A DNA stretch of 27,084 nt from an uncultured Bacilli bacterium (GCA_944363895.1 CALVVP010000080.1:1-27084), one strand, 5' to 3'; positions 9,164-27,084 are shown, counted from the first letter of the stretch. A program made the numbers and translations. Notes: generated from the letters alone by a model not told the origin.

Positions 9164-9181
9164 CCATTGGCTATTTTTTTT
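9154..9181. terminator. Bidirectional intrinsic terminator between convergent pgi and noc-like genes
   Basis: AAAAAAATAGCC-ATT-GGCTATTTTTTT: perfect 12-bp inverted repeat with a T tract on each strand. Confidence 0.85.
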
Positions 9182-10859
9182 CTATTTTAAATATTACTTG
9201 ATATGAATCTTCAAAATCAATTTCTTCAACATCAACAGTAAATCCATATTTTTCTAATGTATTTTCGCATTCTCTTATTGTATTTAAAGCTAAACGCATA
9301 TTAGGTGCAGCAGCGGTAATTGTTGTTCCGGTATTTTGTGCTGCGATATTATTTTCTACTTCTTGATTATTCATATTAGTTGACTGAATAACTGAGTTAT
9401 CTATACTAGGTATTTCAGTTGTATTATTGTCGATAGGCACTTCATATATTGGTTGATTATCAGTAGGTTCGTTAATTATTGAAGGATTTGATTCAATATT
9501 TGATACCCCTGGTACTGTTGGTTCAATTGACGATACACTTGGTGTACTTGGTACCTCTGGCATTGTTGGTTCAATTGACGATACACTTGGTGTACTTGGT
9601 ACTTCTGGTATTGTCGGTTCGACTGTTGGTACACTTGGTTCAATACTTGGCATGCTTGGTACTTCTGGTATTGTCGGTTCAATTGTTGGTACACTTGGTT
9701 CAATACTTGGCATGCTTGGTACTTCTGGCATTGTCGGTTCAATTGTTGGTACACTTGGTTCAATACTTGGCATACTTGGTGCCTCTGGTATTGTTGGTTC
9801 AATTGATGGTACACTTGGTTCAATACTTGGCATACTTGGTGCCTCTGGTATTGTCGGTTCAATTGTTGGTACACTTGGTTCTGTGCTTGATGATAAAGAA
9901 GTTGAATCAGTCACATTATTAGTATTCATATTACTAAAGAAATTTTCTAATTTAAAATCACTTTGATTATTTTGTTCAACTTGTGGTTCTTCAAAGAAAT
10001 TGAAAAATTTACCTTCATGAAGAGGTTGTTCATTCGTTTCAACAGCAGTAGTACTAGAAGGTGCCTTTAATAATTCATCCATATCAGCAACAGGTTTTTC
10101 TTGAGGAGTTATATCTTGTGCAGTTTGTTCAATTTTATCAATATCCATAAAGCCTGGTAATTTAGTAGTATCAATACTACTTAATTCAATATCAGGAATT
10201 TGAACTACTTCTTCTTTAACAATAGGGTTCTCAATTGGTTGATTATTTGTATTTTCATTTAACATTTTATCAATCTCCTCATCTGTTTTTCGAACTGTCA
10301 ATCGTTCAGTTATAATTCTATTTAACATTTCAACTTGTTTTTTTTGGTCTTTCAATTTTAATAATGATCGAGCGTGACGTTCAGAGATTTTATTTTCTAA
10401 TAAGGCTTCTTGAACTTCATCACTTAAATTTAATAATCTTAATGTATTAGCAATAGATGATTGGGATTTTCCCACTTTTTGAGCTAAATCTTCTTGGCTA
10501 ATATAGCCCATATCCAATATTTTTTTATATGAGATAGCTTTTTCAATTGGGGTTAAATCTTCTCTTTGAACATTTTCAATTAAAGCAATTTCGACACTAT
10601 CTTTATCAGTCATTTCTGAAATAATAGCTGGAATTGTTTGTTTACCTGCTAAAACACTAGCTTTATATCTTCGTTCTCCCGCAATTATTTCATATTTATC
10701 GCCAATTCTTCTAACGACAATTGGTTGAATAACACCGTATTTTTTAATTGACAAAGCTAGTTCATTAATTGAATTTTCATCAAATTTAATTCGTGGTTGG
10801 AACCTATTTGGTAAAACATCATTTATATTTAATTCGACAACTTTTTTTTCATTTGGCAC
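9171..10859 (-). CDS. noc: ParB-family CTP-binding DNA-binding protein of the Noc (nucleoid occlusion) type with a ~320-aa low-complexity insertion; 562 aa
   Basis: GTG start after AGGAAGGGG. PNRFQPR, IQPIVVR, IAGERRYKA, ALIENVQREDL, HTH LAQKVGKSQSSIANTLRLL, ISERHARSL. The C-terminal MRLALNTIRE...GF.V..EEIDFEDSYQVIFKIEK resembles the Noc C-terminal domain as I recall it. Located directly after rsmG, the position of noc in Bacillus. Confidence 0.75.
   Translation of the reverse strand: MPNEKKVVELNINDVLPNRFQPRIKFDENSINELALSIKKYGVIQPIVVRRIGDKYEIIAGERRYKASVLAGKQTIPAIISEMTDKDSVEIALIENVQREDLTPIEKAISYKKILDMGYISQEDLAQKVGKSQSSIANTLRLLNLSDEVQEALLENKISERHARSLLKLKDQKKQVEMLNRIITERLTVRKTDEEIDKMLNENTNNQPIENPIVKEEVVQIPDIELSSIDTTKLPGFMDIDKIEQTAQDITPQEKPVADMDELLKAPSSTTAVETNEQPLHEGKFFNFFEEPQVEQNNQSDFKLENFFSNMNTNNVTDSTSLSSSTEPSVPTIEPTIPEAPSMPSIEPSVPSIEPTIPEAPSMPSIEPSVPTIEPTMPEVPSMPSIEPSVPTIEPTIPEVPSMPSIEPSVPTVEPTIPEVPSTPSVSSIEPTMPEVPSTPSVSSIEPTVPGVSNIESNPSIINEPTDNQPIYEVPIDNNTTEIPSIDNSVIQSTNMNNQEVENNIAAQNTGTTITAAAPNMRLALNTIRECENTLEKYGFTVDVEEIDFEDSYQVIFKIEKK
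9511..9881. repeat. Intragenic tandem repeat: about five 60-bp units (20 aa, EPTIPE[AV]PSMPSIEPSVP[ST]I) plus two 48-bp units (16 aa, PEVPSTPSVSSIEPT[MV])
   Basis: Lines 9601, 9661, 9721, 9781 and 9841 align column by column with few substitutions; GTTGGTTCAATTGACGATACACTTGGTGTACTTGGTAC occurs at 9517 and 9565 (48-bp period). Confidence 0.95.
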
Positions 10860-10893: not shown

Positions 10894-10922
10894 ATGATAC
10901 TATATTTTGGGAAATAATGCAA
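10894..10922 (-). promoter_or_regulatory. Putative sigmaA promoter of the noc-like gene, overlapped by a 14-bp direct repeat
   Basis: Minus strand TTGCAT (10922-10917)-17 nt-TATCAT (10899-10894). TTTTGGGAAATAAT occurs at 10905-10918 and 10927-10940. Confidence 0.6.
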
Positions 10923-10947
10923 GGGGTTTTGGGAAATAATTTTAAAA

Positions 10948-11652
10948 TTATAATGGTCTTTTCTTAATTTCATTATATTTCCTAGGAAATTTTTTATCAG
11001 TAATTGCATCTTTTTGAATTTTAATAATTGTTCTTTTACTATTTTCAATTGGTAAATTAAATATTTCACAAGTTTCGATATGAGATTTTAATTTAGTTAA
11101 AGCATTTTTGCTATTTTCAATTTCTTCATTACATGTGCCTTTCATCGCAATAAAATAGCCATTTACTTTAGTAATAGGAAGACAATATTCTAATAAAACA
11201 TTTAGTTGAGCGACAGCCCTAGCGACAACAACATTAAATTTTTCACGGTTTTGAAGTCCATATTCTTCAATTCGACAATGAATAGTTGCAATATTATTTA
11301 AATTTAGTTCAGAAATAACATTATTTAAAAAGTTTATTCTTTTGTTTAATGAATCAATTAAAGTTATTTTCAAATTGGGAAATAATATTTTTAATACTAT
11401 TCCAGGGAAACCGGCTCCAGTTCCCACATCACATAAGTTTTCTACGGTATTTAAATCAATTACTTTTAAAATAGTTAAACTATCATAAAAATGTTTTAAA
11501 TAGACCGCTTCTTTTTCTGTAATGCCGGTCAAATTCATAACTTTATTCCATTCGATTAATAATTTATAATATTTATCTAATTGATTAATTTGTTGATTGT
11601 TAATTTTGATATTTAATTTAGCTAGTTCTTGAATAAATTCTTCTATTTTCAT
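10948..11652 (-). CDS. rsmG: 16S rRNA m7G527 methyltransferase RsmG (GidB)
   Basis: WNKVMNLTGI, HFYDSL, DVGTGAGFPG, DSLNKRINFL, VARAVA motifs; ATGA overlap with mnmG stop. Confidence 0.97.
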   Translation of the reverse strand: MKIEEFIQELAKLNIKINNQQINQLDKYYKLLIEWNKVMNLTGITEKEAVYLKHFYDSLTILKVIDLNTVENLCDVGTGAGFPGIVLKILFPNLKITLIDSLNKRINFLNNVISELNLNNIATIHCRIEEYGLQNREKFNVVVARAVAQLNVLLEYCLPITKVNGYFIAMKGTCNEEIENSKNALTKLKSHIETCEIFNLPIENSKRTIIKIQKDAITDKKFPRKYNEIKKRPL

Positions 11653-13514
11653 CGATTATATTCCTTCTTTAAATAAATACTTAAAATGGAAATATCAGCA
11701 GGATTAACGCCACTTATTCTAATGGCTTGGCCAATGGAAGTAGGGCGGATTTCGGATAATTTTTGTTTGGCTTCACTAGCTAAATTAACAATTTTATTAT
11801 AATCAATATCATCAGGAATTAATTTGTTTTCTAAATTGATTAATTTTAAAGCTTCTTTTTCGGCTTTTTTTATATATCCTTCATATTTAATATTTAATTC
11901 AACTTGTTCAATTATTTCTTCTTCATAATTAAAATCAATTATTTTATTAATTAATAATTTTTGATAAGTTATTTCAGGACGCTTCAATAATTCATAAAGA
12001 CTATAACCATCTTTAATTTTTGTACTACCTAATTTTTCTAATATATCATTGCTACTTGGTGTGACTTTGACACTTTTTAATTTTTCTAATAACTCTTTAA
12101 TTTTTGTTTTTTTAGCTAATAATTTTTGATATTGTTCATTATTGATTAATCCAACTTGATAACCATATTCTCTTAGTCTTAAATCAGCATTATCATGTCT
12201 TAATAACAAACGATATTCAGCTCGAGATGTTAATAAACGATATGGATCACGCACACCTTTAGTTACTAAATCATCGATTAATACTCCGATATAAGCTTCA
12301 TTTCTTTTTAAAATTAACGGTTCTTTATTTTCTAATTTTAGACTAGCATTTATCCCCGCAATTAATCCTTGACAAGCAGCTTCTTCATAACCACTTGTCC
12401 CATTGATTTGGCCAGCGGTGAATAAATTTTCAATGATTTTTGTTTCTAAAGATCTTTTTAATTGAGTAGGGTAGATAGCATCATATTCAATCGCATAAGC
12501 ATATTTATTAATAACGGCTTTTTCTAAACCTGGTAAGCTATGAACCATTTTTTCCTGCACATATTTGGGCATACTTGTCGAAAAGCCTTGTAAATAAATA
12601 TCATCATAATATAAACTTTCCGGTTCTAAAAACAATTGATGTTTCTCTTTATCTTTAAATCTAACAATTTTATCTTCGATTGAAGGACAATAGCGAGGAC
12701 CAATTCCCGTAATATCATTAAGGCCACCATACATACTAGATTTATTTAAATTATCTAAAATAATTTTATGAGTTTCGCTAGTAGTATAAATTAAATGACA
12801 GGGAACTTGTTCTTCAATTTTATAATTTGGTTTATCATCAAAACTAAAAGTATGATAAACTTTATCGCCTTCTTCAATTTTAGTTTTAGAAAAATCAATA
12901 CTATTTTTAGCTATTCGTGGTGGGGTACCTGTTTTTAAGCGAATTATTTTAAAACCATATTTTTTTAAATTGTCACTTAGATAATTACTTGGTTTTTCCC
13001 CGTGAGGACCTTCTCTTGTTCTGGTATCACCGATTAAAATATCTGATTTTAAATAAGTTCCTGTCGTTAAAATGACAATTTTAGCAAATATTTTTTCACC
13101 AGTTTCTGTAATGACACCTTTAATTTGATTATTTTCGATAATTAAATCTTCGATGATTGCTTCTTTAAGATCAAGATTATCTTGTGATTTTAATACTTTT
13201 AACATTTCTTTCGGATAAGTTATTTTATCAGCTTGGGCTCTTAGTGCTCTGACTGCTGGTCCTTTAGCATAGTTTAACATTTTAATTTGTAATAAACTTT
13301 TATCAGTAACTTTGCCCATTATTCCTCCTAGGGCATCGATTTCTCTTACCACAATGCCTTTAGCTGAACCGCCGATTGAAGGATTACATGGCATCGTAGC
13401 AATATTTTCAATTCTTCCGGTCACTAATAAAGTTTGATGATTTTTTTTAGCTGCAGCTACCGCAGCTTCACAACCAGCATGACCACCACCAACAACAATT
13501 ATTTCATATTCCAT
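11649..13514 (-). CDS. mnmG: tRNA uridine-5-carboxymethylaminomethyl(34) synthesis enzyme MnmG (GidA)
   Basis: IIVVGGGHAGCEAA, MPCNPSIGGSAKG, RLKTGTPPR, GPRYCPSIEDK, AGQINGTSGYEEAA, TSRAEYRLLLRHDNAD. ATG 13514 preferred over GTG 13523 because AGGTGA precedes it at RBS spacing. Confidence 0.97.
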   Translation of the reverse strand: MEYEIIVVGGGHAGCEAAVAAAKKNHQTLLVTGRIENIATMPCNPSIGGSAKGIVVREIDALGGIMGKVTDKSLLQIKMLNYAKGPAVRALRAQADKITYPKEMLKVLKSQDNLDLKEAIIEDLIIENNQIKGVITETGEKIFAKIVILTTGTYLKSDILIGDTRTREGPHGEKPSNYLSDNLKKYGFKIIRLKTGTPPRIAKNSIDFSKTKIEEGDKVYHTFSFDDKPNYKIEEQVPCHLIYTTSETHKIILDNLNKSSMYGGLNDITGIGPRYCPSIEDKIVRFKDKEKHQLFLEPESLYYDDIYLQGFSTSMPKYVQEKMVHSLPGLEKAVINKYAYAIEYDAIYPTQLKRSLETKIIENLFTAGQINGTSGYEEAACQGLIAGINASLKLENKEPLILKRNEAYIGVLIDDLVTKGVRDPYRLLTSRAEYRLLLRHDNADLRLREYGYQVGLINNEQYQKLLAKKTKIKELLEKLKSVKVTPSSNDILEKLGSTKIKDGYSLYELLKRPEITYQKLLINKIIDFNYEEEIIEQVELNIKYEGYIKKAEKEALKLINLENKLIPDDIDYNKIVNLASEAKQKLSEIRPTSIGQAIRISGVNPADISILSIYLKKEYNR

Positions 13515-13523
13515 AAATTTCAC

Positions 13524-27020: not shown

Positions 27021-27084
27021 TAACTAATGTTTCACGTGGAACTATAAATAACTAATGTTTCACGTGGAACTATAAATAACTAAT
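27021..27084. repeat. 28-bp tandem repeat, each unit carrying a parS (ParB/Spo0J binding) site; truncated by the window end
   Basis: Unit TAACTAATGTTTCACGTGGAACTATAAA starts at 27021, 27049 and 27077 (partial). TGTTTCACGTGGAACT at 27028-27043 and 27056-27071 matches parS TGTTTCACGTGGAACA at 15 of 16 positions. Confidence 0.88.

Follow-up and report, generated by a model that had tools for sequence, protein, structure and literature searches.

A noc-like gene of an uncultured gut Bacilli lineage joins a ParB-type core to a Noc-type C-terminal domain through a long, acidic, repeat-bearing linker

Results

Gene locus and domain architecture

The window analyzed here is the whole of a 27,084-nucleotide (nt) stretch of DNA (GCA_944363895.1 CALVVP010000080.1:1-27084) from the genome of an uncultured chicken-gut Bacilli lineage with 27% guanine–cytosine (GC) content and a size of roughly 1 Mb (assembly of 0.99 Mb, 82% complete). 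It contains mnmG (11649–13523), rsmG (10948–11652) and, 88 nt downstream of rsmG, an open reading frame (ORF) for a noc-like protein of the ParB family, whose GTG start codon is preceded by a ribosome-binding site (AGGAAGGGG). Inspection of this ORF revealed an intact, folded cytidine triphosphate (CTP)-binding and helix-turn-helix (HTH) core spanning aa 1–204, joined to a Noc-type C-terminal domain by a disordered segment of 319 amino acids (aa):

9171–10859, minus strand: noc-like gene; 562 aa, GTG start, stop included; homologues are called with the same start
10566–10844, minus strand: ParB N-terminal (CTP-binding) domain, aa 6–98; Pfam ParB_N
10260–10562, minus strand: ParB HTH DNA-binding domain, aa 100–200; Pfam HTH_ParB (PF17762), specificity positions Q133, T139, N144 and R161
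9303–10259, minus strand: acidic, Pro-rich disordered linker, aa 201–519; net charge −44
9174–9302, minus strand: Noc-type C-terminal (dimerisation) domain, aa 520–562; a helix and two strands, with a predicted local distance difference test (pLDDT) score of about 85

The protein matches PF02195 with E = 2e-32, and the motifs QPIVVR, GERRYKA and ENVQREDL of the ParB N-terminal domain are invariant across 83 homologues. An AlphaFold2 model built on 83 homologues returned pLDDT values of 80–92 for aa 11–200 and about 85 for aa 521–560. Over aa 206–224, 267–301 and 310–517, i.e. nearly all of aa 206–517, the values fell below 50, with weak short helices predicted inside the linker at aa 240–246, 260–263 and 305–309. 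The 319 linker residues comprise 16% Asp and Glu, 2% Lys and Arg, 16% Pro and 23% Ser and Thr. An original prediction for this DNA had described a ~320-aa acidic, Pro-rich disordered linker between the domains, at coordinates 9303–10260 that translate to aa 200–519, and had proposed disorder and structure prediction as a check; composition and modeled disorder both agree with it, and the flanking domains are confidently folded. A Pfam scan of the linker yielded weak, sub-threshold matches only.

Assignment to the Noc side of the ParB family

The solved structures most closely related to the protein are those of Noc, namely 7NG0 and 7NFU (E about 1e-61) and 7OL9 (3e-54), with Spo0J/ParB structures following at 1e-49 or weaker. 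In a maximum-likelihood tree of 200-aa cores, the Spo0J clade, including this genome's own Spo0J, received 100/100 support and excluded the noc-like protein, its long-linker relatives and the canonical Nocs. That Spo0J, the second ParB of the genome (294 aa), is encoded beside a ParA/Soj gene on contig C9. The NCBIfam model for Noc, TIGR04285, scored 290.1 bits in two stretches, the first covering profile positions 1–203. The curated cut-off of 315 bits was not reached by the noc-like protein, nor by any genome sampled in its taxonomic family. The last 73 aa of the protein (9177–9395) align to TIGR04285 positions 183–255 (E = 8.6e-6), in agreement with the Noc-like C-terminal domain of the original prediction, and the motif of this domain is similar to the one in canonical Nocs.

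DNA-binding specificity in this family has been assigned to four positions, comprising two switching residues and two permissive lysines (Jalal et al. 2020; PMC7383237). Located via the conserved neighbors GKS, N138 and R164, the switching residues proved to be Noc-type: Q133 corresponds to Q173 and R161 to R201 in Caulobacter ParB numbering, and both are invariant in the family. The permissive lysines K179/K184 are not present, with T139 (conserved in at least 90% of the 83 homologues) and N144 in their place. This genome's Spo0J carries R, I, R and G at the four positions. On the Caulobacter ParB scaffold, a Q-T-A-R variant without both lysines did not bind DNA (PMC7383237).

Judged from sequence comparison, the protein is a Noc-side paralogue of the ParB family; the Noc-type identity put forward originally is backed by the best structural relatives, the tree, the position after rsmG and the alignment of the C-terminal domain. 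With the Noc proteins of Bacillus subtilis and Geobacillus thermoleovorans (TIGR04285; PDB 7NFU, 7NG0, 7OL9 and 6Y93) it shares the ParB CTPase, an HTH with Q173 and R201, the Noc-type C-terminal domain, the position after rsmG, a separate Soj–Spo0J pair and the occurrence in the genome of palindromic Noc-binding sites (NBS; ATTTCCCGGGAAAT). In contrast, the linker of canonical Noc in this class consists of about 20 mostly basic residues, as opposed to 319 residues of acidic character here, and the noc-like protein differs further in the T and N at the permissive-lysine positions and in a TIGR04285 score below the curated cut-off. Chromosomal ParB/Spo0J has the fold, the CTP motifs and dimerisation through the C-terminal domain in common with it, but falls into another clade, carries other specificity residues and possesses an N-terminal ParA-contact peptide that is missing from the noc-like protein.

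Absence of the N-terminal membrane helix

The N-terminal amphipathic helix is indispensable to canonical Noc: B. subtilis Noc without its first 10 residues is non-functional but regains activity when given a heterologous amphipathic helix (PMC4331003); the N-terminal helix, helix alpha-2 and the loop that follows are Noc-specific elements (PMC8429893). Residue 6 of the noc-like protein aligns to residue 27 of 7NFU, and the open frame upstream of its start extends for only 5 codons. No N-terminal amphipathic helix was found in the protein itself, in about 117 homologues or across 43 sampled genera. One of the about 117 homologues has a 22-residue upstream extension, possibly the result of a mis-called start. 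Elsewhere in the class, other families encode canonical Nocs in frames of 261–306 aa whose N-termini read MGLFDFLG, MASLFNIL or MNIFSG. The noc-like protein is thus devoid of three elements of canonical Noc, namely the amphipathic membrane helix at the N-terminus, helix alpha-2 and the connecting loop.

The sister family encodes a Noc of 262 aa (G025 contig C29) with no helix, a short linker and a very long branch (2.53 changes per column). As this short-linker Noc is also helix-less, loss of the helix may predate expansion of the linker.

Tandem repeats and copy number

Much of the linker consists of tandem repeats:

9585–9890, minus strand: five 60-nt/20-aa tandem units (PSIEPSVPTIEPTIPEAPSM), aa 324–423; Tandem Repeats Finder and translation
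9500–9639, minus strand: 48-nt/16-aa tandem units, 2.9 copies, located after the 20-aa units in the protein; Tandem Repeats Finder

Tandem Repeats Finder called the 60-nt unit at 4.9 copies (9585–9881; 94% matches, score 503) and the 48-nt unit with 86% matches, a repeat structure far beyond chance. Five 20-aa and two 16-aa repeats had been predicted originally, together with possible variation in copy number. The units were recovered as five of 20 aa and 2.9 of 16 aa, and the variation was seen directly: in public assemblies made independently, the gene encodes near-identical in-frame proteins of 562, 562, 566 and 582 aa, and the conspecific allele for the 582-aa protein holds exactly one 60-nt unit more than the window. 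Outside the repeat block, these two alleles differ at just 2 of about 1250 nt, as against 14–16 differences within it. Length change in the block thus proceeds in whole units, and its sequence evolves more rapidly than the flanking DNA.

Repeats of this kind might arise in assembly, and De Bruijn contigs (Logan) from four independent chicken-gut studies do fragment at 9577–9852, just as the contigs of many relatives end within the noc gene. However, in the same four studies both flanks are present at ≥99% identity and the 45–193-nt pieces between 9577 and 9852 show raised k-mer depth; in addition, independent assemblies agree on in-frame proteins, and homologous repeats occur across the family. 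An assembly artefact is therefore effectively excluded. The repeat is real in nature, with an exact unit count per strain that is uncertain because all assemblies are short-read and contigs fragment inside the repeat. In many relatives, the N-terminal and C-terminal halves of the gene are found in different frames or on different contigs, or the contig stops inside the repeats, making the linker repeats a frequent assembly breakpoint. Genes annotated as 'partial ParB' in these metagenome-assembled genomes are probably truncated by assembly.

Two further candidates raised by the repeats were dismissed. A secreted or cell-wall protein, as Pro-rich repeats might suggest, is ruled out by the two cytoplasmic DNA-clamp domains that flank them, and ORFs in other frames across the repeats (9476–9966) are unsupported by-products of the repeat.

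A CTPase core, a 319-aa disordered tether and a dimerisation domain would fit a protein in which the long tether alters clamp topology (a very large lumen, N-terminal engagement between dimers, bridged networks) or drives condensates. Canonical Noc is reported to phase-separate on membranes (PMC9606368). The net charge of −44 and repeats almost without basic or aromatic residues argue against self-association, however, and as an account of the linker this is decidedly unlikely. The enlarged lumen, adjustable tether or condensate put forward originally would each be plausible in its own right.

Linker variation in the family

Across a family sample of 119 genomes from 74 genera, each at least 85% complete, a long-linker noc-like gene was present in 117, with ORFs of 323–764 aa; the Spo0J paralogues of the same genomes measure 290–303 aa. 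Within the genus, the longest noc-like frame reaches 829 aa. The comparison of linkers between homologues that the original prediction had proposed revealed wide variation in both length and repeats: the 43 sampled linkers range from 77 to 566 aa, some rich in Pro and acidic residues, as here, and others containing up to 31% Asn and Gln (G144, G054). Repeat units are unrelated between species (e.g. MPEFNFEVP, IPSFDVPAAPAVE, IPSYEVPSMDI and YETPEVPMYEP, against IEPSVPTIEPTIPEAPSM here), and many have in common a core composed of a hydrophobic residue, Asp or Glu, Val or Ile, and Pro. Full-text literature searches returned no account of a long-linker or helix-less Noc, nor of a long-linker Noc/ParB in this lineage.

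Such a spread in composition and length, unrelated repeat sequences and repeat DNA that diverges faster than its flanks are what would be expected of a neutral, low-complexity linker, i.e. an insertion-tolerant segment, filled by slippage in an AT-rich genome, that merely connects two domains, the protein then being an origin-proximal, self-repressing ParB-like clamp. Yet all 43 sampled linkers carry a net negative charge, and long linkers are maintained in 117 of the 119 genomes although these are only about 1 Mb in size. Conserved motifs kept inside the variable sequence, described below, speak against neutrality as well.

Conserved motifs within the linker

Alignment of the 83 homologues revealed two invariant linker positions (P222 and F285) and 17 more that are at least 90% conserved, which we grouped as modules A to D:

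10065–10199, minus strand: module A, aa 221–265 (IPD ... PGFMDIDKIE..A.DI ... ADMDELLK); most widely conserved linker motif
9987–10013, minus strand: module B, aa 283–291 (GKFFNFFEE); conservation and likeness to the FtsA C-terminus
9927–9959, minus strand: module C, aa 301–311 (DFKLENFFSNM); short predicted helix at aa 305–309
9399–9452, minus strand: module D, aa 470–487 (PIYEVPI...TEIPSID); conserved within the genus only

A profile of module A, which overlaps the weak predicted helices at aa 240–246 and 260–263, matched 22 of the 43 genera and none of 43 shuffled controls. With these conserved motifs, the linker is more than a plain spacer. In two subgroups the repeats precede modules A and B rather than follow them, and the modules are retained nonetheless. 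Given these motifs, we consider a neutral linker unlikely, albeit an explanation that deserves some weight. In a hydrophobic-moment scan, the conserved modules were the most amphipathic windows of the linker. Searching all frames of this genome with profiles of modules A, B/C and D revealed no other carrier protein.

Module B (GKFFNFFEE) resembles the C-terminal membrane-targeting peptide of FtsA, which in this genome ends in LGKVFGYFFGE and is conserved across the family. The pattern [GS][KR][FVIL]F.[FYL]F occurs three times in all frames of at least 80 aa, with the FtsA C-terminus and the noc-like linker among the occurrences. Module B differs from the FtsA peptide in being internal and set among acidic residues, and is a candidate membrane binder only. 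Some long-linker homologues contain GLFGLFGKKK within the linker, much like the N-terminus of canonical Noc.

The C-terminal linker of FtsZ is disordered and highly variable in length and sequence, and carries a conserved C-terminal docking peptide. By analogy, the noc-like linker is a variable disordered segment bearing short conserved peptides, and both linkers appear to be constrained in their bulk properties rather than in their sequence; FtsZ is an unrelated protein, though, and the noc-like linker is internal, lying between two folded domains. The likeness might extend to the motifs themselves, such that the linker would act as a multivalent decoy or hub whose FtsZ-tail-like motifs bind FtsA or SepF, with DNA-bound Noc competing locally with FtsZ for membrane anchors. 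The FtsZ of this genome ends in DTDVPSFLRNRGF (reads DVPSFLR) and that of the family in D[IL]P[PS]FLR. Same-genus relatives contain as many as about 20 copies of DIPSFDVP, EVPSFDVP or DIPTFDVP, the first of which shares five residues with DIPSFLR, the FtsZ tail found in several family genera; the noc-like protein retains one TEIPSID and one YEVPI, and genes for FtsA, SepF and a DivIVA-like protein are all encoded in the genome. However, the protein's own repeats (IEPSVP / IEPTIP) contain no aromatic residue, the residue after Phe is Asp where the FtsZ peptide has Leu, and module D was detected in 1 of the 43 genera and in none outside the genus. Short motifs of this type also arise easily in sequence rich in Pro, Asp and Glu. 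A decoy function appears quite improbable.

Noc-binding sites and the noc promoter

A search of the assembly for the NBS palindrome ATTTCCCGGGAAAT identified one perfect site and one with a single mismatch, both on contig C38, a count that puts it among the two highest of 140 palindromes matched for composition. The three best 16-base-pair (bp) NBS-like palindromes of the assembly likewise lie on this 12-kb contig (4690, 7647 and 10496), about 3 kb apart. The 8-bp half-site TATTTCCC occurs 9 times on C38, compared to 0.84 expected copies (p = 3e-7). Genome-wide the half-site is not enriched (69 copies, rank 35 of 280 permutations), its enrichment being confined to contigs C38 and C80. Tandem parS sites (AGTTCCACGTGAAACA) with a period of 28 bp occupy 27028–27084 of the window, run off its end and continue on C38 at 11967–12020. 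Since the end of C38 thus overlaps the parS array at the right end of the window, the NBS adjoin the origin region.

Within the genus, 25 of 26 genomes hold 1–6 NBS, and a reversed control pattern was almost absent; a perfect NBS is typically accompanied by a near-perfect one on the same contig, at a distance of about 5 kb. This differs from B. subtilis, where NBS are many and scattered around the chromosome (PMC4331003): here, 1–6 near-perfect sites per genome cluster near the origin.

A further difference from canonical Noc is the presence of NBS half-sites within the promoter of the noc-like gene itself:

10894–10938, minus strand: noc promoter; −35 element TTGCAT (10917–10922), −10 element TATCAT (10894–10899)
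10927–10938 and 10905–10916, minus strand: two direct copies of TATTTCCCAAAA, 22 bp apart, each with an 8-bp NBS half-site
10977–10990, no strand assigned: NBS-like palindrome ATTTCCTAGGAAAT with 2 mismatches, at the 3′ end of rsmG, upstream of noc

One copy of TATTTCCCAAAA lies upstream of the −35 element and the second within the −35/−10 spacer, and these half-sites are conserved in about 20 species, distant ones included. Two conserved half-site copies overlapping the promoter suggest that noc is autoregulated, putatively via half-sites rather than a palindrome.

The palindrome in rsmG (ATTTCCTAGGAAAT) falls into the last codons of that gene (KFPRKY) and is found in most relatives; G005 has a copy with a single mismatch. 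Constraint on the palindrome may stem from coding, from binding or from a combination of the two.

In another species of the genus (G015 contig C3, 13650–15800), NBS palindromes reside inside the noc gene. There, a 68-aa linker repeat encodes N-x-F-P-G-N through ATTTCCCGGGAAAT, giving two perfect palindromes and one with a single mismatch, 204 nt apart. These use CCC and GGG codons, GC-rich for a lineage whose genome here has 27% GC.

Discussion

We read the noc-like protein as a DNA clamp of the Noc clade with an acidic tether of variable length that bears docking or membrane motifs, and put the probability of this reading at roughly 0.55, its mechanism being inferred. The protein would load as a CTP-dependent clamp at the few origin-proximal NBS and would repress its own promoter via the half-sites. 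Its repeat block might form an extended, DNA-repelling spacer of variable length, and the linker motifs could take over the contact with the membrane or division machinery that canonical Noc makes through its N-terminal helix. In such a scheme, the FtsA-like GKFFNFF of module B and LENFFSNM of module C are candidate membrane-binding elements, and module A is a putative docking site for a partner.

Several observations weigh against this proposal. The hydrophobic moment of the modules is only moderate (0.38–0.43) and not decisive. Acidic residues flank modules B and C, whereas membrane peptides usually have basic ones, and AlphaFold2 predicted no helix at aa 281–291, with low confidence. A profile of modules B and C reached E ≤ 0.01 in just 6 of the 43 genera, and about half contain looser [KR]FF motifs. 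The specificity set Q-T-N-R lacks both lysines, as does the non-binding Q-T-A-R variant, which puts the strength of its DNA binding in doubt. Finally, CTP binding, clamping, membrane binding and autoregulation are inferred for every member of the family.

More doubtful is an extension of the tethered-clamp reading to the family as a whole, in which nucleoid occlusion or origin anchoring would have been rebuilt: the clamp would load only at a few origin NBS, the helix would be replaced by tether motifs (an FtsA-like peptide, module A and, in some species, FtsZ-tail-like arrays), and the number of repeats would set reach or valency.

The accepted mechanism of Noc depends on an N-terminal membrane helix, and here Noc has been retained without this helix throughout a family of gut bacteria whose genomes are very small, a long acidic disordered tether with conserved motifs standing in its place. 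If the linker motifs do not replace the helix, the Noc of this lineage must act otherwise than by tethering DNA to the membrane. If they do, the family would provide an example of a membrane-targeting function moving within a protein. Its linkers of about 80 to 570 residues also constitute a natural length series for studying how linker length affects ParB-type clamps.

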